64,000 nucleotides of DNA from the IMG/VR virus record IMGVR_UViG_3300042483_000604; one strand, written 5' to 3'. This DNA is from a virus. Lineage: Duplodnaviria > Heunggongvirae > Uroviricota > Caudoviricetes. Below are positions 1-57,157 of the stretch, piece by piece; the first letter of the stretch is position 1, and every line of letters starts with the position of its first letter. The translations under genes and the position numbers were made by a program. The notes beneath the pieces are model-generated. The model did not search any database. It saw only the letters and a list, made by a program, of their open reading frames with translations, and was not told where the DNA came from.

Positions 1-210
1 AGCAAATACTGTTGTCCAATGGCTAGTTCCTTCAGCTTTAAATTGGATAGTCTGAAGAGCTCCTTTCTTCCATCTATTAAGAGAAGGTAATTCAGATCCT
101 ATTTCTGTAGCTATCATAAAGCCTGCTTGTACTTTTACTATGGCCTGGAAGATACCTTTTCTACCTCCGATGAAATCTACTACTGTTAATCCTTTGATTT
201 TGTTGATCAT
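1..210 (-). CDS. hypothetical protein (N-terminal part; ORF runs off the window start)
   Basis: ATG at 208-210 on the minus strand, open frame to position 1, promoter motif directly upstream (237-269). Confidence 0.4.
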   Translation of the reverse strand, partial: MINKIKGLTVVDFIGGRKGIFQAIVKVQAGFMIATEIGSELPSLNRWKKGALQTIQFKAEGTSHWTTVFA

Positions 211-236
211 GATATATGTCGTTTTAATTATTGATA

Positions 237-269
237 CCTAAAGATAAGAAGAAGCCTCCGAAGAGGCAA
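237..269 (-). promoter_or_regulatory. promoter motif TTG-N20-TAnnTTTAG (spacer contains GCCTC-TTCG-GAGGC hairpin)
   Basis: sequence. Confidence 0.5.
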
Positions 270-277
270 CTTTTTTT

Positions 278-412
278 TTAAAAATAAGGGAAATATTTTT
301 CTTTTAAATAAGTGATAACATCTTCTGCTGCTAATGCTTTGGCGTCTGCTAATGACATTTCTGATAAATAATCTTTTGCAATTTCTTCAACTAACTGATC
401 GATTTTTGACAT
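278..412 (-). CDS. small hypothetical protein (44 aa)
   Basis: short ORF with upstream promoter motif 437-470; below the ORF-track length cutoff. Confidence 0.3.
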   Translation of the reverse strand: MSKIDQLVEEIAKDYLSEMSLADAKALAAEDVITYLKEKYFPYF

Positions 413-436
413 ATTATATTGTTTTAATTATTGATG

Positions 437-470
437 CCTAAATATATGCATTTATATGGTAGGATCCAAC
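437..470 (-). promoter_or_regulatory. promoter motif TTG-N20-TATATTTAG
   Basis: sequence. Confidence 0.5.
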
Positions 471-522
471 CCTTATATGTTATTTATATTCATTATAAAT
501 TAAAAAAAAGTTAATAAAAAAG

Positions 523-555
523 TTGCTAGTTACAAAGATCGTTCGTATCTTTAGG
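523..555 (+). promoter_or_regulatory. Bacteroidetes-type promoter on the PLUS strand (TTG-N20-TATCTTTAGG)
   Basis: exact match to the recurring motif; only plus-strand copy; no ORF downstream. Confidence 0.55.
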
Positions 556-630
556 TATGTTAGAAGGGAATAAGGGGCCTGGCTTTGAAAGAGAGTCGGA
601 AGAGTAGAAGGGCCGGTACGCCATGTTCGT

Positions 631-700
631 TACTTAAAGCAAAGCTTTAACTTAAAGTGATGCTTTAACTGAATATTTTACTTAAAGGAAAGCTTTAGAT
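631..700. repeat. three tandem palindromic units (TTAAAGC-n3-GCTTTAA and variants)
   Basis: direct reading of the sequence. Confidence 0.55.
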
Positions 701-868
701 AAAAAGGAAAGGGCCCTTGTGAGGCCCCTGCTTGGAAGAGGAGTGCTTCTCCTTCCTGGTGTAGGTCTTCTTAGACTTCTGAATGGTATGCCGTGAGGCT
801 GCCCATCTCTCTTGCATTGTAATCTGAATCTGTTTCATAGGTGCTGAGTATTATTTTTAATATATAGG

Positions 869-1066
869 CTACATTAAAGTAGTACCCCAAGTATAGAACA
901 GGAAGAACATTACTAATACTGCTAGGAAGATTATCTTTTCCCCTATAGAAGAAGTAAATATCCATTTAATAGCCTCATAGATAAGTACAAGGAATATCAG
1001 TATACTAAATAAATGTACTATTCCAGAAAGAAATCCACCTTTGTTCTTATTTGTTTCCATACCCAT
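869..1066 (-). CDS. small membrane protein
   Basis: hydrophobic TM segments; promoter motif 1082-1114 immediately upstream. Confidence 0.5.
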   Translation of the reverse strand: MGMETNKNKGGFLSGIVHLFSILIFLVLIYEAIKWIFTSSIGEKIIFLAVLVMFFLFYTWGTTLM

Positions 1067-1081
1067 ACCTGTTTTTATATA

Positions 1082-1114
1082 CCTAAAGATAAGAAGAATA
1101 GATCATATAGGCAA
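1082..1114 (-). promoter_or_regulatory. promoter motif TTG-N20-TATCTTTAG
   Basis: sequence. Confidence 0.5.
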
Positions 1115-1159
1115 CTTTTTTATAGGCTTTTTTTACCCCCGAAGGGGGATAAGGACAGG

Positions 1160-1290
1160 GTCTCTAACGGGTAAAGAGAACGGGTCTCAATTGGGTCACT
1201 AGACGGGTAACAAAACGGGTAGCTAGAACGGGTTTGTAAAGGGTAACGAATCGGGTTACTAGAGAGTGAAACGGGTCTATAGAACGGGTA
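1160..1290. repeat. iteron array A: about 10 copies of AACGGGT (variants GACGGGT, TGGGT) at 11-13 bp spacing
   Basis: direct reading of the sequence. Confidence 0.7.
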
Positions 1291-1560
1291 TCTACTATAG
1301 ATTTTCCTTATTATAGAAAAAAACTATTAAGGAGACACACAAGCCACATTTTTCCTATCCTTATTTTACCATCCCTACTTCCTTTTTTTACACATCATAT
1401 ATACTATACAATACCTTTTCATACCAAGTACTATATGTCTTTATACTCTTCCATTCCTTTTACTACTCTTTATGTTTAATCAGAGTCGTACCCTTTTACT
1501 ATGTATTTCCAGTAGTTCTCCCTATGTCTCTCCCTTTATCTCTCCAGGTCCATACGTATG

Positions 1561-1632
1561 TATAAACGGGTATCGATTGGGTAGAGAAACGGGTAATTGG
1601 ACGGGTATCAAAGTGGGTATTTTAACGGGTAT
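1561..1632. repeat. iteron array B: about 6 copies of AACGGGT at ~12 bp spacing
   Basis: direct reading of the sequence. Confidence 0.7.
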
Positions 1633-1887
1633 CTAGGCTTGTTCTTCAAAGAAATAAGACCATAATCCTAATGAGAATTTACCTACATACTTTCCACTGT
1701 AATGACTTATATCATATGGTAGGTAAGTAGTTTCTCCTATAGGGGTAAATAAACATCTTCTTACATTACCCTCTTCTAGTATACCTTCATATACTCCTTC
1801 CTCTTCTCCAAGTCTATCTAAGTAATATGTCTTTCCTATTATTAGATTATTACCATCTACTTGTATTAACTTCTTATTTGTCTTCAT
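1633..1887 (-). CDS. hypothetical protein
   Basis: ORF track; follows the iteron region. Confidence 0.45.
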   Translation of the reverse strand: MKTNKKLIQVDGNNLIIGKTYYLDRLGEEEGVYEGILEEGNVRRCLFTPIGETTYLPYDISHYSGKYVGKFSLGLWSYFFEEQA

Positions 1888-1943
1888 TGTACTATTGCTG
1901 GATATATTATTTCTTTCTATAGTATTTACCCCTCTACGGATAC

Positions 1944-2150
1944 TTATATCTTTCTAATTTGTATTTGCCAAACTTCTTTTACCTTTATGTAACCATTCTC
2001 ATCTGGCTTTCCTACATATTTTAGTAAGGCCATATGACTATTCTTTTTTATTAGATTGAATGTCTTTGAATCATAATAGTCCATAAGGACTATTCTATAC
2101 CCTATCCTTCTACATATTCTCCAATATAGATTTGCTATTAGCTTTTTCAT
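1944..2150 (-). CDS. hypothetical protein
   Basis: ORF track. Confidence 0.4.
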   Translation of the reverse strand: MKKLIANLYWRICRRIGYRIVLMDYYDSKTFNLIKKNSHMALLKYVGKPDENGYIKVKEVWQIQIRKI

Positions 2151-2151
2151 A

Positions 2152-2367
2152 CTATTCGTCCATTGACATAAAGAATGATACTATAAGAGCTATTACCATA
2201 TACAATCTAACAATTGGCCATTCAATGTTTACTTGAATACTCCATGTCATAAAACATCCTATTGCATACAGTACTATACAAAGTGCTAATGGTAATGCTA
2301 TAAAAAATCCTAAATAAATTTCTAAAAACTTTTTCATATTTCTTCTAATGTTAATATTGATATACAA
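2152..2367 (-). CDS. small membrane protein
   Basis: two hydrophobic segments. Confidence 0.45.
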   Translation of the reverse strand: MYININIRRNMKKFLEIYLGFFIALPLALCIVLYAIGCFMTWSIQVNIEWPIVRLYMVIALIVSFFMSMDE

Positions 2368-2531
2368 TGTGGAAAGTTATCATAGTCTCTGAGTATTATC
2401 AATCCTCCTTGTTCCTTTACTACCTGGACAGCTATTCCTTCTATAACCTTTCCTGCTCCTTTTCTAGAGTTAAAGGTTACTTTATTACCTCTATACTTTT
2501 TATGATATAATACTACGTCTTCAATTTTCAT
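2334..2531 (-). CDS. hypothetical protein
   Basis: ORF track. Confidence 0.4.
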   Translation of the reverse strand: MKIEDVVLYHKKYRGNKVTFNSRKGAGKVIEGIAVQVVKEQGGLIILRDYDNFPHCISILTLEEI

Positions 2532-2689
2532 CTTCTATAACTAAATAAGGTTTATCATTCTCTGTCTTCTTTATTGTACCCCTTTGTATCAATTCCTGAG
2601 TACCTTGAGGATCTTTTTGAGACATTATTAGGATTGTCTCCTCCATATAGATTACTTTCATATAACTTTTGTTTAGATTTTACCTCCTA

Positions 2690-2760
2690 CAACTCGGAGG
2701 GTTGGGAGAATTTGCGCGTGACACCTTCGGTGAGGAGAGAGAAGCGCCCCCTCCTCCCCT
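2690..2760. repeat. GC-rich structured element copy 1 (core AATTTGCGCGTGACACCTTCGGTGAGGAG)
   Basis: 29-nt identity with 25501-25529; G-run/C-run outer stem; CACC-UUCG-GGUG tetraloop hairpin. Confidence 0.6.
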
Positions 2761-2889
2761 AAGTCTCTATATTGAATCTATTTGTTCTTGTGTTAAACTA
2801 TCTCTCCATTCATTGATGTAAGCCTCTTCCTCATCAAGTAATGCCTGTAATTCCTCTTCTGTCATAACCTTTATTTGTTTGTTTCTATA

Positions 2890-2922
2890 CCTAAATATAC
2901 GAAAAAAGAGCTGCGCTAGCAA
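2890..2922 (-). promoter_or_regulatory. promoter motif with palindromic spacer (terminator-like hairpin)
   Basis: sequence. Confidence 0.5.
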
Positions 2923-2950
2923 CTCTTTTATCAATTATTTTTAAAATATT

Positions 2951-3790
2951 TTACTTTAATCCGTACAATACACTAGTACCTGATCCTAATTGTGTTGTCG
3001 GTACATTACCTTTCCACTTCTCAATCCATTGCTGTTGTATTAACATTGGAGTTAATGTTTGTTGTCTCAATCTATTTGATTCAGCTTCAGCTCTTGCATT
3101 CGCTAGTAATGCTTCAGCGTTACCATTTGCTGTTGCTACTTTGATTTTAGCTTCTGCTTCTGCTTGCTTAACTTTATTCTCTGCCATTAAAGCTGACTGT
3201 ACTGCATTGTTCTTAGCATTAATAGCTTTCTTAAATGAATCTGGATAGATTAGATTTGATGTGAATTGATTTAGTATGAATCCTTCTTTCTGTAATTGTG
3301 TTACCAATATTCTTCTTACTTCAGTTTCAAATACTTCTCTATTTGAAATCAATCCATCTGCTGTATACTTATTTGCTGCTAATCTAAAAGCATCGTACAC
3401 GGCCGTTTTTAAGAATCCTTCTTCAATTTCTGGTAAGCTTCTTCTATATTTTGCAAAGATAGCTGGTACTTTATCTCTCTGTACTGAGTAATTCATAATA
3501 GGTGATACACTGAATTCAGATCCATCTTTACTATTTACAATGAATGAATTGTCTCCTTCTTCTGATTTCTTATACTCTTTATGTTGAATATAAGTTGGAA
3601 ATTCATAGATCTTTGTTGACATAGGATTGTAAAATACTAATCCAGTACATTCTGTAACATCGCTTACTCCTTTACCTGACCCATATAGATTTACTTTTAC
3701 ACCTACATGCCCGGCATCAATACGTTCACATGAGAATACTCCCACTACTAATAACACTACTAATCCTAATACTACTAAAATTCTGTTCAT
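2951..3790 (-). CDS. SPFH/band-7 (HflK/C-prohibitin-like) membrane protein
   Basis: N-terminal TM, GHVGV motif, C-terminal Ala/Glu-rich coiled coil typical of the SPFH family; promoter 3837-3869. Confidence 0.65.
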   Translation of the reverse strand: MNRILVVLGLVVLLVVGVFSCERIDAGHVGVKVNLYGSGKGVSDVTECTGLVFYNPMSTKIYEFPTYIQHKEYKKSEEGDNSFIVNSKDGSEFSVSPIMNYSVQRDKVPAIFAKYRRSLPEIEEGFLKTAVYDAFRLAANKYTADGLISNREVFETEVRRILVTQLQKEGFILNQFTSNLIYPDSFKKAINAKNNAVQSALMAENKVKQAEAEAKIKVATANGNAEALLANARAEAESNRLRQQTLTPMLIQQQWIEKWKGNVPTTQLGSGTSVLYGLK

Positions 3791-3836
3791 AACTTGTTGT
3801 TTAAATTTGATTTATAATTAATTATTTATTACTATA

Positions 3837-3869
3837 CCTAAATATACGAAATATATTCTTAGGAGGCAA
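3837..3869 (-). promoter_or_regulatory. promoter motif TTG-N20-TATATTTAG
   Basis: sequence. Confidence 0.55.
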
Positions 3870-4259
3870 CTAATCCAGCCCTAATTTTTTTCTTTTATCT
3901 GTTTTATAAGTAGAATTTTCAATGTTATCTTTAAATAACTTTTTAACTCTACTGTAAGCTTTGCTCCATATTGGAATTACTCCTACATCTGTAATGTGAT
4001 ATGGAAATATCAATGAGTACTGTGTTTGAAAAATGGAAGGATTATTTCCATGTCTGACTGTATATCCTTTTACATTTAAAACAAACTTATCATTCCATCT
4101 TTTAGTTACTCCGTTTATAAGATTTTCATTTTCAATTCTATCTAAATAATCTGAAATGTCTTTATCTGAGATTGGAGATCCTAGCTCACATGTTGTAACA
4201 GTTTCTATAATTCCTAAAACTACTAAACCTGCAATTAATAATATTAATAACACTACCAT
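3870..4259 (-). CDS. membrane-anchored hypothetical protein
   Basis: N-terminal TM helix. Confidence 0.5.
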   Translation of the reverse strand: MVVLLILLIAGLVVLGIIETVTTCELGSPISDKDISDYLDRIENENLINGVTKRWNDKFVLNVKGYTVRHGNNPSIFQTQYSLIFPYHITDVGVIPIWSKAYSRVKKLFKDNIENSTYKTDKRKKLGLD

Positions 4260-52163: not shown

Positions 52164-52212
52164 GTACTACATTGGAGATGAGGGAATTGCTCTCATATTG
52201 GATAAACTTTAG

Positions 52213-52287
52213 TGTCCTATACAGGATTCGAACCTGTGACCTTCTCGTTATGAGCGAGCTGCTCTAACCGGCTGAGCTAAAAGGACA
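52213..52287 (-). tRNA. tRNA-Met/Ile2 (CAT)
   Basis: GGTTCGAATCC T-loop on minus strand, cloverleaf with CTCATAA anticodon loop. Confidence 0.7.
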
Positions 52288-52292
52288 ATTTG

Positions 52293-52366
52293 TAGCGTAG
52301 CGTGGACTCGAACCACCCCCCAGGCTTATGAGACCTAGATGCAACCTTTACACCTTAACGCAATTT
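52293..52366 (-). tRNA. tRNA-like, CAT anticodon loop, poorly paired acceptor/D arms
   Basis: TTCGAGT T-loop and CTCATAA loop, but acceptor has only 4 bp. Confidence 0.3.
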
Positions 52367-52372
52367 ATAAGC

Positions 52373-52444
52373 GGTCTGCACGGGGATCGAACCCGCAATC
52401 TTCGCAGTGACAGTGCGACGTGTTACCAATAACACCTCCAGACC
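52373..52444 (-). tRNA. tRNA-Asp (GTC)
   Basis: cloverleaf, loop CTGTCAC. Confidence 0.75.
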
Positions 52445-52498
52445 AAAATGCCCGTCTGTTCCGAGCTGTCAACCACCAGCTGTTATACAGCTGTATAG

Positions 52499-52570
52499 TG
52501 GAGCTACCGGGATTCGAACCCGGAATAACAGAATGCAAATCTATCGTGATGCCAATTTCACTATAGCCCC
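52499..52570 (-). tRNA. tRNA-Ala (TGC)
   Basis: cloverleaf, G3-U70 identity pair, loop TTTGCAT. Confidence 0.8.
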
Positions 52571-52645
52571 AGTTACTCGTCTTTCCGAGTCGTCAAATCT
52601 AGAAGCTGATTAAGCTATTCCTCCTAATACGAATAAAGAGCTCTG

Positions 52646-52717
52646 TACTGCGTACGGGATTCGAACCCGTGCCTTATCATAGAAAGTGATACGTGTTTAC
52701 CCCTTCACTAACGCAGC
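52646..52717 (-). tRNA. tRNA-Glu (TTC)
   Basis: cloverleaf, loop CTTTCTA. Confidence 0.75.
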
Positions 52718-52723
52718 AATTTG

Positions 52724-52795
52724 AGCGGCTAGAGAGAATCGAACTCTCATCTTTAGATTGGAAGTCTAAAGTAATGACCATTATACGATAGCCGC
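52724..52795 (-). tRNA. tRNA-Gly (TCC)
   Basis: cloverleaf, loop CTTCCAA. Confidence 0.8.
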
Positions 52796-52800
52796 AGTTG

Positions 52801-52874
52801 AGCTTCTGGACGGGATCGAACCGACTCTATTCTGGGTTACAAATCCAGTGCACCACCATTTGTGCGTCAGAAGC
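52801..52874 (-). tRNA. tRNA-Thr (TGT)
   Basis: cloverleaf, loop TTTGTAA closed by an A-C mismatch. Confidence 0.6.
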
Positions 52875-53069
52875 AAATTTAAACTATTAGAGGCTATTGG
52901 GAGTCATCAGTGGCAGCCTTTCACCGTAAACTCGGCTTCCCAATCTTATCTGCACATCTATCTAACTTTTTACGCATAATAGTTTATATTTTAATTAGAG
53001 CCGGGCTATGAATCCGTTCTGCAGGTTAGCCCCTGCTGCTTTAACCTTTATAAGCTAACTCTAATTTTG

Positions 53070-53143
53070 TACCCAAGGAGGGACTCGAACCCTCAATATC
53101 TAGATCCTAAGTCTAGCGTGTCTGCCAATTCCACCACTCGGGC
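53070..53143 (-). tRNA. tRNA with anticodon TAG (Leu-like D arm, short variable arm)
   Basis: GTGGAATTGGCAGAC D-arm like tRNA-Leu, loop CTTAGGA, A73, but only a 5-nt variable region. Confidence 0.5.
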
Positions 53144-53238
53144 ATTTGCCGCATGTGCGGCCACTTATCAATCGGTAGCTCCCTCTCGTTGTCCATCTGT
53201 GGGTGTAACACATTTGGTAGAGGGTCGAACCTTCAATG

Positions 53239-53309
53239 AGGTCGGTGTTGGAATCGAACCAACGTTACAGAGTTTGCAATCCTGCGCCTAACCATTCGGC
53301 CAACCGACC
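53239..53309 (-). tRNA. tRNA-Cys (GCA)
   Basis: cloverleaf, loop TTGCAAA, U73. Confidence 0.65.
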
Positions 53310-53394
53310 AATTTAAACATCTAGCCTGACCTGCCAGACAGTACGTGTCGTCGATCGTGCGTTACGTAGTAGATGTTTTATCTTCTTTCTTATA

Positions 53395-53427
53395 CTTAAA
53401 GATATGAACTTTATTTCTTTCTAGCAA
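53395..53427 (-). promoter_or_regulatory. promoter motif positioned to transcribe the tRNA sub-array 52213-53309
   Basis: sequence. Confidence 0.5.
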
Positions 53428-53436
53428 CTTTTTTTA

Positions 53437-53943
53437 CTAAAAAAATAAAAAAGTTTCCCATTCCTTTGGTATGTGTGTCATAGTTCTCATTAACATTAAA
53501 TAGTGAGGTCTTTTTGGTTCTGGAATTTCCTTACCGTATTCCTCTAATGTTAAATCTGCTTTCTCATGATTACATGGTCTGCAGGCTGTTACTAAATTAT
53601 CCCAAGCATCTTTTCCTCCTTTTGATTGAGGTATAACATGGTCAAGTGTTAGTGTTCTTTGATTTGAACATCCGCAGTAAACACATTCGTAATTATCTCT
53701 TCTATAAATATTCTCTCTTGTTAGAGCTACTTTTTGAATATTATGTTTTACATATGTAAATACTCTAATAATAGAAGGTTTATAAATTGTTAATTCTGGG
53801 TTATACAGATTAAATGTTTCTGGATGTTCAGCTATTACTTCAGCATTACCTTTATAAGAAATCACGAAAGCTCTTTCTGTACTTATAACTGATCTTGCGA
53901 TAAAGCTGGCATCTACTACTAGTGCTTTTTGATACTTACTCAT
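53437..53943 (-). CDS. HNH endonuclease inserted within the tRNA array
   Basis: CVYCG...LDHVIPQSKGG..WDNLVTAC..CNHEK canonical HNH motif. Confidence 0.8.
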   Translation of the reverse strand: MSKYQKALVVDASFIARSVISTERAFVISYKGNAEVIAEHPETFNLYNPELTIYKPSIIRVFTYVKHNIQKVALTRENIYRRDNYECVYCGCSNQRTLTLDHVIPQSKGGKDAWDNLVTACRPCNHEKADLTLEEYGKEIPEPKRPHYLMLMRTMTHIPKEWETFLFF

Positions 53944-53975
53944 GATTTACTTTTTTTAATGAAACAATATATTTG

Positions 53976-54052
53976 CGCGAACCCTAGGAATCGAACCCAG
54001 CCGTCGAGGTTTTGGAGACCTGACCGACACCTTGTCTGTGGAACGCATTTGT
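53976..54052 (-). other. degenerate tRNA-like element
   Basis: TTCGATT T-arm but no acceptable acceptor/anticodon arms. Confidence 0.25.
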
Positions 54053-54118
54053 AGGGTATCGCTTAACCTACCTAGATTAGCCTCATCTACTTAACCCTTA
54101 TGAGGGACGATTTTTTTG

Positions 54119-54189
54119 AACCCATACCTGGACTTGAACCAGGACTGAAACGTTAGAAGCGTTTAGTTCTTCCGATTAAACTATACGGG
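54119..54189 (-). tRNA. tRNA-Arg (TCT)
   Basis: cloverleaf, loop CTTCTAA, TTCAAGT T-loop. Confidence 0.7.
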
Positions 54190-54195
54190 CAGTTG

Positions 54196-54267
54196 AGGTC
54201 TTAGTAGGAGTCGAACCTACGTTCTATCGTTCGTAGCGATAAGTTTTTCCAATTAAACTATAAGACC
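54196..54267 (-). tRNA. tRNA-Arg (ACG)
   Basis: cloverleaf, loop CTACGAA. Confidence 0.75.
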
Positions 54268-54343
54268 AAATAAGAGAGGCTTTATTTAAGCTACTTTCTG
54301 CTATGCAACAGGGTAGGCAATTAGTCCTACATCTCTCTCTTTG

Positions 54344-54423
54344 TACCCCTGACTGGAGTCGAACCAGCAAGCCTGAGCGCCAAGTTTTAAGCCTGGTGTG
54401 TTTACCATTTTCACCACAGGGAT
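54344..54423 (-). tRNA. tRNA-Leu (TAA), class II
   Basis: loop CTTAAAA, 11-nt variable arm, A73. Confidence 0.65.
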
Positions 54424-54430
54424 ATGTTTG

Positions 54431-54504
54431 TGTGAAAGATGGGACTCGAACCCACAATCTCCTGAACCACAATCAGACGCTTTACCAATTCAGCTACAAT
54501 CACC
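54431..54504 (-). tRNA. tRNA-His (GTG)
   Basis: loop TTGTGGT, extra 5' G(-1); acceptor has two U-U mismatches. Confidence 0.55.
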
Positions 54505-54710
54505 ATATTGTACCGACTACAAGTTACGCTCTTGTCTGAGAATACTTATGAGATATTCTCGATCCTAGATCAAGTCGGTAGTTGATAGGGAACCTCTTAC
54601 CCTATCGCTGTACTATCTGATTTTAAAGTGTCTTACCACGGGGCCCCGTTCGTACTTCCTTCTCCTGCATTCCTTAGATGCGTTGTGAGGACGGTGAGGA
54701 GGTTTTTTTG

Positions 54711-54793
54711 AGGAAAGCAGAGGTATCGAACCCCATGCCCGAAGGCACGATACGCTTAGCAAGCGGTCTCAACTCCTAGTTGATTTACTTTCC
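54711..54793 (-). tRNA. tRNA-Ser (GCT), class II
   Basis: loop TTGCTAA, long variable-arm hairpin with UUCG loop; T-stem imperfect. Confidence 0.45.
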
Positions 54794-54798
54794 CTTTG

Positions 54799-54872
54799 TA
54801 GGTAATATAGGAATCGAACCTATAACCTCTCACGTATCAGGCGAGTGCTCTAACCAATTGAGCTAATTACCT
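54799..54872 (-). tRNA. tRNA-Ile (GAT)
   Basis: clean cloverleaf, loop CTGATAC. Confidence 0.8.
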
Positions 54873-54879
54873 ATTTTTG

Positions 54880-54955
54880 TGCTCATAGCTGGAATCGAAC
54901 CAACCTCGATAAGTCACTTACTCCAACCAACTGCTACTTGTTACGTACCTTGAGC
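54880..54955 (-). tRNA. tRNA, anticodon unresolved
   Basis: good T-arm and acceptor; D/anticodon arms could not be folded by eye. Confidence 0.4.
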
Positions 54956-55032
54956 TTTTACGATTGACCGTCACGTTATCCCACTTCAGGTTGGGGAGCT
55001 ACCACACTACCTGTTATACGAGCATTTAATTG

Positions 55033-55104
55033 CGGGCCTGGGAGGAATCGAACCTCCATAAGATGATTAACAGTCATCCGTAATAACCTTTATACGACAA
55101 ACCC
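55033..55104 (-). tRNA. tRNA-Asn (GTT)
   Basis: cloverleaf, perfect GATGA/TCATC anticodon stem, loop CTGTTAA. Confidence 0.8.
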
Positions 55105-55109
55105 GGTTG

Positions 55110-55182
55110 TGGACCCTACAGGAATCGAACCTGTTCCTCTAGTTCTTCAGACTAGCGTACGCACCAGCTATACAAAAGGTCC
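55110..55182 (-). tRNA. tRNA-Phe (GAA)
   Basis: cloverleaf, loop CTGAAGA. Confidence 0.8.
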
Positions 55183-55187
55183 AATTG

Positions 55188-55270
55188 TGGGATACTGTGG
55201 AATCGAACCACACGCTTCTTACAGCAACGATTTTACAGACCGCTTATCACACCAGTGACTGAAGCATCCC
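55188..55270 (-). tRNA. tRNA-Tyr (GTA), class II
   Basis: loop CTGTAAA, long variable arm. Confidence 0.7.
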
Positions 55271-55276
55271 AATTTG

Positions 55277-55348
55277 ATCATTCTACAGGAATCGAACCTG
55301 CTTCTCCACCCTCCACGGGCAGCGTAGTCACCAATCTACCAAGAACGA
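55277..55348 (-). tRNA. tRNA, atypical anticodon loop CGTGGAG (TGG-like, lacks U33)
   Basis: good acceptor, D and T arms. Confidence 0.4.
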
Positions 55349-55447
55349 AACTATAACAAGCTTTCATCGGCAAATTACTAACTCATAATAGACTCCATAT
55401 AGTCTTGAAAATACTTGCCGGTATTTTACTTGCTACCCAGAATTTTG

Positions 55448-55518
55448 TACCTCGTGATAGAATCGAACTATCGCCCTTTGCATGTAAAACAAATACGCTA
55501 CCATTACGCCAACGAGGC
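55448..55518 (-). tRNA. tRNA-Val (TAC)
   Basis: cloverleaf, loop TTTACAT. Confidence 0.75.
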
Positions 55519-55575
55519 AAATCTAATTCTACGCTTCGGTCTAAAAGCCCTTCTATGAATTAGTAACAGTCTTCT
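55519..55575 (-). repeat. conserved tRNA 5'-leader, copy 1 (upstream of tRNA-Val)
   Basis: CAAATCTAATTCTACGCTTCG...CTTCTATGAATTAGTAACAGTCT shared with 55653-55712. Confidence 0.5.
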
Positions 55576-55579
55576 TTTG

Positions 55580-55652
55580 TACCCCCGGCTGGCCTCGAAC
55601 CAGCTACCCCCGAGTTAAAAGCCCGGTGCCCGTCCACATGAGCTTCGAAGGC
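55580..55652 (-). tRNA. tRNA-Lys (TTT)
   Basis: cloverleaf, loop CTTTTAA, perfect T-stem. Confidence 0.7.
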
Positions 55653-55712
55653 AAATCTAATTCTACGCTTCGAGGACTTACTCGCGTGGTCTTCTATGAA
55701 TTAGTAACAGTC
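55653..55712 (-). repeat. conserved tRNA 5'-leader, copy 2 (upstream of tRNA-Lys)
   Basis: direct repeat of 55519-55575. Confidence 0.5.
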
Positions 55713-55720
55713 TCTTCTCG

Positions 55721-55796
55721 TCTGGTAGGCAGGATTCGAACCTGCGTGCTCTAGCGTCCAAGGCCAGCGAGATAAACCGGACTCCTCTACTACCAG
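55721..55796 (-). tRNA. tRNA-Pro (TGG)
   Basis: cloverleaf, loop CTTGGAC. Confidence 0.75.
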
Positions 55797-56011
55797 TGGT
55801 GAAGGGATTATTTTTTTAAAGTAGAATTCGCCCATCTCAAAACTACTGTAATTTCCGTAAGCAAAGCCATCGGGCTGATTCCCTGTACTCATGTCTTGCA
55901 TCGTTTTCTCCATATGGATTTCTCCACTACTTACTGATAATGCTTTCTTTACTAACCGTCCTACTTACTGATCAAGTGTTGGGATAGGCTTTCATTACTT
56001 ACAATTATTTG

Positions 56012-56083
56012 TTGGCTTACTAGGATTCGAACCTAGACTAAAACAGTCAAAGTGTTTTGTGCTAACCGTTACACTATAAGCCA
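56012..56083 (-). tRNA. tRNA-Gln (TTG)
   Basis: cloverleaf, AAACA/TGTTT stem, loop CTTTGAC. Confidence 0.8.
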
Positions 56084-56089
56084 ATATTG

Positions 56090-56173
56090 AGGAAGACGTG
56101 GGACTCGAACCCACAACAGTATTACCTGCTACCACTTTTCAAGAGTGGCTCCTGATCCAGCCGGATGCCTTCC
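56090..56173 (-). tRNA. tRNA-Ser (TGA), class II
   Basis: CCACT/AGTGG stem, loop CTTGAAA, long variable arm. Confidence 0.7.
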
Positions 56174-56221
56174 CTATGCTTTATCCAATATGTCAATGAA
56201 CTCTTATTCTTTATTTCTGTA

Positions 56222-56253
56222 CCTAAAGATACGATTTTTTTTTCTTTCTAGCA
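56222..56253 (-). promoter_or_regulatory. promoter motif positioned to transcribe the tRNA sub-array ending at 56173
   Basis: sequence. Confidence 0.5.
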
Positions 56254-56270
56254 ACTTTTTTTTAATAAAA

Positions 56271-56305
56271 AACCCGAATCTTTTTTTGATCCGGGTACCT
56301 TACTT
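56271..56305 (-). terminator. hairpin plus U-run upstream of the promoter at 56222
   Basis: ACCCGGATC-A7-GATTCGGGT then U6 on the minus strand. Confidence 0.35.
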
Positions 56306-56332
56306 ATAATATGTATTTTATACTATATCATA

Positions 56333-56476
56333 TCATACCCCGGTACCTCCTTGTTTCGGTTCGTTATTATATCCAGCAAAGCCTAAAATGACATCCCCAC
56401 ATAACGAATCCGACCACGTATTCAATGCTCTTGTCGCTGTGCTAAGTTGTTGATGTATGTTTTGAATTGCTTTCAT
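56333..56476 (-). CDS. small hypothetical protein (47 aa)
   Basis: ORF preceded by tandem promoter motifs 56496-56527 and 56565-56596. Confidence 0.25.
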   Translation of the reverse strand: MKAIQNIHQQLSTATRALNTWSDSLCGDVILGFAGYNNEPKQGGTGV

Positions 56477-56495
56477 TTTATTTGCTTTCTATATA

Positions 56496-56527
56496 TAAAT
56501 ATATGAACTTTTCCATTCCAGTCCAAC
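56496..56527 (-). promoter_or_regulatory. promoter motif (tandem copy 1)
   Basis: sequence. Confidence 0.4.
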
Positions 56528-56564
56528 TATATTTTAATTTTTTTTCTTTGTGTTTTTATATATT

Positions 56565-56596
56565 ATAAATATACGAACTTTTATTTTATAAAACAA
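56565..56596 (-). promoter_or_regulatory. promoter motif (tandem copy 2)
   Basis: sequence. Confidence 0.4.
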
Positions 56597-56616
56597 CTAC
56601 TGTTCTTTGGATTAAT

Positions 56617-56928
56617 TTATCCGTTTATTAATTTTTTTTTCTTAACTGGCTCACATCCATCATTGTTAATTGACGTAAGTTTTTGTTCTAATTTGTCTAC
56701 TCTGGAGTCTGTATAGGAAATACAGTCTGAGTGTAGTTTGTTTACTCGATCAACTTCCTGATCAATTCTACGATTTACTAATTCATCGTTTCTAGAAATC
56801 CAGTTCTGTATTTCAGTTAACTCTTTTTCTTGCTTTGCTACTTTGCTTGCTGTTCTAAACGCTACCACAACCCCCCATGCAAGGAGAGCTATACCAACCC
56901 CTAAAACAAATGCTAAAATTTGTTCCAT
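56617..56928 (-). CDS. membrane-anchored coiled-coil protein
   Basis: N-terminal TM helix. Confidence 0.4.
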   Translation of the reverse strand: MEQILAFVLGVGIALLAWGVVVAFRTASKVAKQEKELTEIQNWISRNDELVNRRIDQEVDRVNKLHSDCISYTDSRVDKLEQKLTSINNDGCEPVKKKKLING

Positions 56929-56969
56929 AATTTATAATTTTTATTTCAAAGAACAGTAGTTTAATTTTG

Positions 56970-57066
56970 TAGTCAGGACAGGATTCGAACCTGCTCCAGC
57001 TTTGCCATAAATAGTATATTTCAACTAAACCTTGGGGAGGTGCCACCAACCAATGGTCTCCTGACT
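56970..57066 (-). tRNA. atypically long (97 nt) tRNA-like gene, possible insertion/intron
   Basis: canonical T-arm and 7-bp acceptor pairing, but ~25 extra nt between D and T regions. Confidence 0.35.
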
Positions 57067-57071
57067 GTTTG

Positions 57072-57157
57072 GAATCGGTGAGGGATTCGAACCCTCATCC
57101 CGCTTAGAAGCGGTGTTACCCTCTGTCGGTATTCATTCCCGATTACACCAACCGATT
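57072..57157 (-). tRNA. class II tRNA (Leu/Ser-like), anticodon unresolved
   Basis: perfect GAGGG/CCCTC T-arm, 7-bp acceptor, variable-arm hairpin CCGC-TTCTAA-GCGG. Confidence 0.5.

Follow-up and report, generated by a model that had tools for sequence, protein, structure and literature searches.

A single-copy two-array heptamer element in immuto-like Flavobacterium phages: a probable nucleoprotein assembly site and possible replication origin

Described repeat arrays and the present locus

Every phage needs at least one origin of replication, and such a site is usually recognised by phased direct repeats within a unique non-coding region. In origins of the Rep, lambda O or TrfA type, the iterons are 17-22 bp long. 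In addition, parC of plasmid R1 has, by a promoter, two clusters of short direct repeats that recur about every 11-12 bp, and the pac sites of P1 and SPP1 have two repeat clusters around the cleavage region. Meanwhile, protein p6 of phi29 contacts DNA with a 12-bp periodicity, which implies that the DNA is wrapped or untwisted at the site where replication starts. In T7, which we checked directly, the concatemer junction includes five CCTAAAG-type heptamers (the SRR array), a 160-bp terminal repeat, 12-13 further heptamers (the SRL array) and then the early promoters. The heptamers of T7 have 13-bp periods, and one promoter, A0, is leftward. To our knowledge, the function of the T7 short-repeat arrays has never been settled. 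Furthermore, we know of no immuto-like phage, and of no large Bacteroidota myovirus, with a mapped cis-acting replication or packaging site.

Here we describe an element of array-core-array layout in a viral DNA of 64,000 nucleotides. This whole stretch is called the window, and positions refer to it unless another sequence is named. The sole match of the first 6 kb of the window was Flavobacterium phage vB_FspM_immuto (87% identity, 51% of the query), a 160,410-bp myovirus of the genus Immutovirus that was isolated from the Baltic Sea. The immuto isolates have the accessions MW353175-7, and Flavobacterium sp. LMO8 is a host. Immuto shares the layout of the element, in a single copy at 66.3-66.95 kb. 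We found no description of the element in the literature. The element varies the iteron or short-repeat-array theme in a clade-specific way, and it is very probably a nucleoprotein assembly site, with a putative protein docking on its repeats.

Anatomy and conservation of the element

The arrays, the core and the adjoining hairpin were located as follows.

1136-1148, no strand: CCCCC-GAA-GGGGG, a GC hairpin that separates a promoter from the left array
1155-1289, plus strand: left array, 11 RAACGGGT-type heptamers with a period of 12 +/- 1 bp, plus a decayed unit at 1261-1267
1155, 1166, 1179, 1190, 1202, 1214, 1227, 1238, 1250, 1270 and 1283, plus strand: unit starts of the left array, one-mismatch variants counted
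1290-1564, no strand: core, 275 bp, non-coding, with zero copies of the heptamer
1290-1330, no strand: least stable 40-bp patch, TATAG-A7-CTATTAAGG imperfect hairpin, adjoining the left array
1389-1450, no strand: best-conserved core block, TACACATC..TATACAGTACC-N-AGTACTATATGTCTTTATACTCTT
1551-1565, no strand: tract of alternating pyrimidines and purines where the core meets the right array, including the 10-bp palindrome CATACGTATG
1565-1630, plus strand: right array, 6 heptamers in the orientation of the left array, with a period of 11-12 bp
1565, 1576, 1588, 1600, 1612 and 1624, plus strand: unit starts of the right array, one-mismatch variants counted

The exact heptamer AACGGGT occurs 10 times in the window, where 1.9 copies are expected, and none of 100 shuffles reached 10 copies. 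Nine of the 10 lie at 1166-1630, all on the plus strand. The unit counts of the arrays are higher, and they take in one-mismatch variants read from the sequence. The preliminary description had reported about 10 and about 6 repeats, in good agreement with the 11 units (and one decayed unit) and 6 units found here. It had also placed the repeats roughly one helical turn apart, and this has to be corrected, since the period is 12 bp and exceeds one turn. In 11 homologous elements, the unit consensus is RAACGGGT(A/C)TCW, and 142 of about 165 spacings measure 11-13 bp, the remainder being mostly double units. When other AACGGGT arrays were searched for, no further cluster was found, either in the window or across the 160 kb of immuto, and the element is thus single-copy in both. 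Relative to transcription, which follows the minus strand, the left array is the downstream and longer one, and the right array is the upstream and shorter one.

Most relatives have a GC hairpin like that at 1136-1148, with different stem sequences, and the terminator scan called the hairpin on neither strand. In immuto, a terminator-like hairpin was read by eye from the sequence immediately outside the right array. In addition, a full 7-deazaguanine DNA-modification set (FolE, QueC, QueD, QueE, QueF and DpdA) is annotated at 18.6-37 kb of the immuto genome. Because of this gene set, the heptamers of virion DNA, being G-rich, may bear modified bases.

Both strands of the core were checked and neither holds a credible ORF, so the ORF-free segment that had been noticed between the arrays was borne out. 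The sole ORF of at least 30 aa is on the plus strand and crosses the right array at a place where relatives have an insertion, and it was rejected as coding sequence. Neither a sigma-70 scan nor the Bacteroidota/phage consensus detected a promoter inside the core. The plus strand of the core is 66% C+T (71% for 1340-1560), and the window mean is 57.8% (sd 3.5). Thus, the earlier wording "almost purely pyrimidine" was too strong, and the distinctive trait of the core is its G depletion (7.5% G), which was equally low in just 10 of 3187 windows. The core had also been called AT-rich and likened to a DNA-unwinding element. However, its AT content is 67.4% against a genome background of 65.9%, and 1231 of the 3187 windows are equally or more AT-rich. 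The patch at 1290-1330 is the only unusually unstable segment, within the top 0.6% of the least stable 40-bp windows, and it is the sole candidate unwinding segment. This patch is not kept in L020 and L124, the two most divergent relatives.

The block at 1389-1450 contains a 9-bp imperfect inverted repeat (ATACAGTAC / GTACTATAT) and served as the search pattern for relatives. In one relative (L328), the block has been swapped for other sequence. A 45-bp hairpin insertion (GTCGAAGACAGAGTAGGTGAGATACTCTGTTTCTCAATCTACGAT) lies where the core meets the right array in immuto L001 (8515-8559), L125, L128 (two copies) and L353. This insertion is absent from the window at about 1565, its presence differs even among near-identical strains, and no copy was found elsewhere in the immuto genome.

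Pattern scans of IMG/VR revealed at least 18 distinct metagenomic relatives that share the array-core-array layout in the same orientation, with 8-14 units in the left array, 3-8 in the right array and a homologous core. One further copy is on a 3.3-kb contig in a metagenome bin, the sole bacterial assembly in which the core pattern was found. The idea that the repeat is generic to many viruses was rejected, as the other IMG/VR matches were mostly perfect coding tandem repeats in unrelated contigs. Among the matches listed in three IMG/VR pattern scans, the imperfect two-array layout was confined to immuto-like contigs. The identity of 11 elements to the window was 83% at heptamer positions, 60% in the spacers, 78% in the core and 43% in the right flank. 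The heptamer motif is under selection. These comparisons also support the view that the whole element is a clade-wide conserved, non-coding, single-copy cis element under purifying selection.

The first gene on either side of the element differs even between strains with near-identical elements. Meanwhile, of 14 contig ends, 9 are no more than 1.5 kb from the element, where 2.4 would be expected (P = 1e-5). These ends lie on both sides of the element, and outside the core wherever the sequence is retrievable; one contig without DNA apparently ends about 195 nt past the flanking gene, within the element, as judged from gene coordinates. The ends cluster near the element because the flanking genes are mosaic. 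We rejected the ends as physical genome ends, for they coincide with gene cassettes that vary between near-identical strains, and attributed them to assembly breaks. In another relative (L341, 10247-10801), the left array is interrupted by an inserted promoter-plus-gene cassette, and the GC hairpin occurs in duplicate along with a stretch of the array.

Promoters, small genes and genome context

The following features lie around the element.

1082-1115, minus strand: consensus promoter GTTGCC-N18-TATCTTTAGG, which follows the left array and the GC hairpin and fires away from the element into the mini-operon
695-1066, minus strand: mini-operon, with a variable first ORF (869-1066) and a conserved second ORF (695-838)
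523-735, plus strand: antisense consensus promoter (523-555) and, converging on the mini-operon, its predicted transcript of about 170-200 nt, which is conserved and non-coding
246, 446, 1091, 2899, 3846, 6027, 6976 and 8206, minus strand: promoter-plus-leader cassettes of about 60 nt, AAAAAGTTGCC-N18-TATATTTAGGTATCAATAATTAAAAC, before many small ORFs

The strong consensus promoter of the phage is AAAAAGTTGCC-N18-TATATTTAGGTAT. In immuto, 17 of 19 such promoters are within 60.9-76.2 kb, of which four lie upstream and the other 13 follow the element downstream. The promoter-plus-leader cassettes of immuto were also observed at 60.9-76.2 kb. They resemble the promoter-stem-loop cassettes of T4-type hyperplastic regions, and their leader class switches at the element. 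A cluster of divergent promoters had been described next to the repeats. This holds for the promoter at 1082-1115, which abuts the left array and fires away from it, but the promoter at 523-555 lies 600 bp off and points towards the element.

The ORF at 695-838, the second gene downstream of the element, encodes a very basic protein of 47 aa (MKQIQITMQERWAASRH...KSKKTYTRKEKH) that is kept in all relatives whose sequence reaches that far. A terminator hairpin at 709-729 overlaps the 3' end of the gene and encodes the C-terminus of the protein. The AF2 model of the protein is a single helix with no DNA-binding fold (pLDDT 63), and the search against Pfam gave only a sub-threshold DUF7230 match. 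With this low-confidence model and sub-threshold match, the protein was rejected as a ribbon-helix-helix binder of the arrays. Conserved linkage is the basis on which we infer that the mini-operon belongs to the element.

The promoter at 523-555 is unique: no other consensus promoter is on the antisense strand, either in the window or across the whole immuto genome. The predicted antisense RNA (562-735) terminates at the terminator of the mini-operon. Its 5' domain is conserved (AAGGGGCCUGGCUUUGAAAGAGAGUCGGAAGAGUAGACGGGCCGGUAC), it carries two or three TTAAAGC-loop-GCTTTAA hairpins, and no Rfam match was found for it. In one relative (L123), the RNA is present in two tandem copies. The module stays linked to the element as far as the divergent relative L124, and the two may be functionally associated.

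All annotated ORFs of immuto are on one strand except six tiny ones, and the gene-bearing strand is the minus strand of the window. GC skew is negative throughout the window. The annotation of immuto includes genes for a gp20-like portal and a gp23-like capsid protein. Its large terminase is gp17-like: the best PDB hits are gp17 of T4 and RB49 (E = 1e-38), and the identity to T4-like and cyanomyovirus terminases is 27-32%. The replication genes comprise a DnaB-type helicase, a DnaG primase, Pol A, SSB and a RecA-like recombinase, and no initiator or origin is annotated in immuto. Its GenBank record begins within a fragment of a DNA polymerase A gene or precisely at that fragment, and another Pol A gene is found at 37.9-40.2 kb. 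Therefore, the start point of the record is arbitrary, and the polymerase may be split in two. In addition, 23 tRNA genes are clustered on the minus strand of the window at 52212-57157 and explain a GC-rich stretch (up to 44.6% GC). Just four tRNAs are annotated within positions 1-50,000 of immuto, where its tRNA cluster sits.

Replication origin and rival readings

The 7-bp motif is selected, the 12-bp phasing is strict, and the units have one orientation in a single-copy locus; thus, a cooperative protein-binding array that acts on the core is the reading we prefer. A putative sequence-specific protein would bind the RAACGGGT units cooperatively. Because the repeats come every 12 bp and not every 10.5 bp, a continuous protein array would have to spiral around the DNA or untwist it. 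The two arrays of the same orientation (11 and 6 sites) would bracket, and probably loop or wrap, the 275-bp core, which bears additional conserved motifs. The 12-bp periodicity is shared with the p6 complex of phi29. However, p6 recognises bendability and acts at protein-primed linear ends, whereas the present element has a conserved heptamer.

Among the readings of such a nucleoprotein site, we tentatively rank a replication origin first. This ranking is made on prior grounds, because every phage needs an origin, none is known in this group, and origins are usually recognised as unique non-coding islands with phased repeats. The complex might then start phage DNA replication with the arrays acting as iterons. 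Melting or priming in the core could occur at the unstable patch beside the left array, or via an RNA-DNA hybrid that would be favoured by the strong G/C strand asymmetry of the core.

The origin reading is plausible. The tandem phased repeats are far beyond chance, one-stranded and confined to a single locus, and the 12-bp phasing recurs in the 11 homologous elements. Furthermore, the layout is kept in at least 18 relatives despite varying flanking genes, the unstable patch adjoins the left array, and an active-looking promoter adjoins the element. Iteron-type origins (lambda ori, P1 oriR, RK2 oriV and F oriS) resemble the element in that phased direct repeats occupy one unique locus, transcription is nearby and a segment on the flank might melt. 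However, these origins have repeats of 17-22 bp on a period of about 22 bp, whereas the element has a 7-bp motif on a 12-bp period, which is shorter and denser than classical iterons. In contrast to them, the element also lacks an adjacent or overlapping initiator gene, a DnaA box and AT enrichment over background, and L020 and L124 do not have the unstable patch. Eleven neighbouring ORFs scanned against Pfam and PHROGs gave no match to an initiator or DNA-binding family, and a distant or unrecognised initiator is possible. No DnaA box (TTATCCACA) was found within one mismatch at 1000-1700. In addition, the layout is at least as close to the T7 concatemer junction as to any known origin.

The preliminary description had proposed an iteron-dependent origin or a partition/packaging site and had looked to a skew inflection here as a sign of it. 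What stands of this proposal is a non-coding, single-copy, phased-repeat cis element. The background-level AT content of the core does not support the AT-rich unwinding element, for which the patch at 1290-1330 is the one candidate, and no adjacent initiator gene or DnaA box was found. Both the window and the whole immuto genome show a monotonic cumulative GC skew with no inflection. Formally this counts against an origin, but it is uninformative: nearly all genes are on one strand and the skew follows gene orientation, so it neither locates nor excludes an origin.

It is unlikely that the element is a packaging or concatemer-processing site. Such a site could be a T7-style junction with the core as a short direct terminal repeat, or a pac site where terminase subunits bind both arrays, cut the core and start headful packaging. 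The likeness to T7, the nearest architecture that we verified, lies in the layout. Along transcription, the element has 6 units, the 275-bp core, 11 units, an early-type promoter and one antisense promoter. Both systems have 7-bp arrays of the same orientation with a period of 12-13 bp, 5-6 units in the upstream array and 11-13 in the downstream array, a unique non-coding centre of 160-275 bp, and early host-type promoters that directly follow, with one promoter pointing backwards. The single copy of the element fits this reading too, and nearly all genes are on one strand, as in T7. However, the motifs are different (CCTAAAG in T7 and AACGGGT here). The centre in T7 is the virion terminal repeat and has four copies of the heptamer, whereas the core, a possible terminal repeat at most, has none. 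Four early-type promoters are upstream of the element. No contig with retrievable sequence ends inside the core; the contig without DNA apparently ends within the element, and the variable flanking genes explain the clustering of contig ends.

The terminase also argues against a T7-style junction. The immuto large terminase is gp17-like and does not belong to the fixed-end T7-like class, and the gp17-like family performs headful packaging with no fixed ends. It would be distinctly improbable that a T4-superfamily myovirus with a gp17-like terminase has fixed ends and that the core is its terminal repeat, in a convergent copy of the T7 junction. If this were true, a role of T7-type short-repeat arrays in the formation of ends or the entry of DNA would be general. 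As for the pac form, the repeat clusters on each side of a central region, the single copy and the headful-type terminase recall P1 and SPP1. However, the element (66.3-66.95 kb in immuto) is about 52 kb from the terminase gene (119.0 kb) and not in or beside the terminase genes, it has many more repeats than the pac sites, and no small terminase was found.

We also doubt that the element serves transcriptional control or insulation. A phage or host regulator would coat the arrays and loop out the core, and this would switch the adjacent promoter and the mini-operon or block read-through in the early-gene zone. The position of the element is consistent with this reading, for a consensus promoter is 40 bp from the end of the left array and directly abuts the first heptamer in L020 and L124. 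Furthermore, the element is inside the zone of the 17 strong promoters of immuto, at the change of leader class and beside the terminator-like hairpin read by eye, and its linkage to the conserved 47-aa basic protein and the convergent antisense RNA is an arrangement typical of control circuits. However, the conserved 275-bp core with its own motifs and the second array 400 bp from the promoter exceed the needs of an operator. The conserved 47-aa protein has no DNA-binding fold or family, and such arrays are absent from the other 18 promoters of this class.

A very unlikely reading is that the core is a non-coding RNA gene, purine-rich in the sense and pyrimidine-rich in the antisense direction, with the arrays as regulatory or processing flanks. 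Conservation is higher in the core than in the adjacent protein-coding flanks, the strand asymmetry of the core is strong, and two small hairpins tolerate only changes that would keep G-U pairs. However, these two hairpins favour opposite strands, and compensatory changes were seen in none of the 26 predicted pairs of the consensus fold on the minus (sense) strand. The z-scores of the single-sequence folds were -1.86 (minus) and -0.14 (plus). No Rfam match was found at E <= 1 within 1-4000, and no consensus promoter lies in the core or faces it.

Least probable of all is that the phage has a plasmid-like carrier state and that the element is its centromere-like partition site, comparable with the binding of ParR to parC. 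In R1 parC and related ribbon-helix-helix centromeres, as in the element, two clusters of direct repeats with a period of about 11-12 bp lie by a promoter, and such an array would suit a DNA-coating, DNA-bending protein; the element is also single-copy. However, the gap between its clusters is a conserved 275 bp, whereas that of parC is a 39-bp promoter, and the promoter here is outside the arrays and not between them. There is no linked partition NTPase or adaptor gene: no ParA, ParM or ParB-like gene is annotated in immuto, and the scan of 11 neighbouring ORFs gave no match to a partition, initiator or DNA-binding family. Moreover, the phage was isolated as a lytic myovirus, and the core pattern was found in one bacterial assembly only, the 3.3-kb contig of the metagenome bin. 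Finally, an attP site or transposon end was rejected because the arrays are direct and not inverted and because no integrase or transposase is annotated in immuto.

Meaning for immuto-like phages

The element is very probably a protein docking site and possibly an origin. For a cis-acting replication or packaging site in these phages, the element is the obvious candidate, and at 0.6 kb it is small enough to clone and test. In addition, the heptamer arrays with their 12-bp period are unlike classical iterons, and they predict a putative DNA-coating protein. If the element is simply an origin, this would be a useful yet ordinary annotation. Meanwhile, the parallel with the T7 junction is unexpected in a phage with T4-type packaging genes. 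If this parallel is functional, immuto-like phages would provide a second, independent system in which arrays of the T7 type could be studied.
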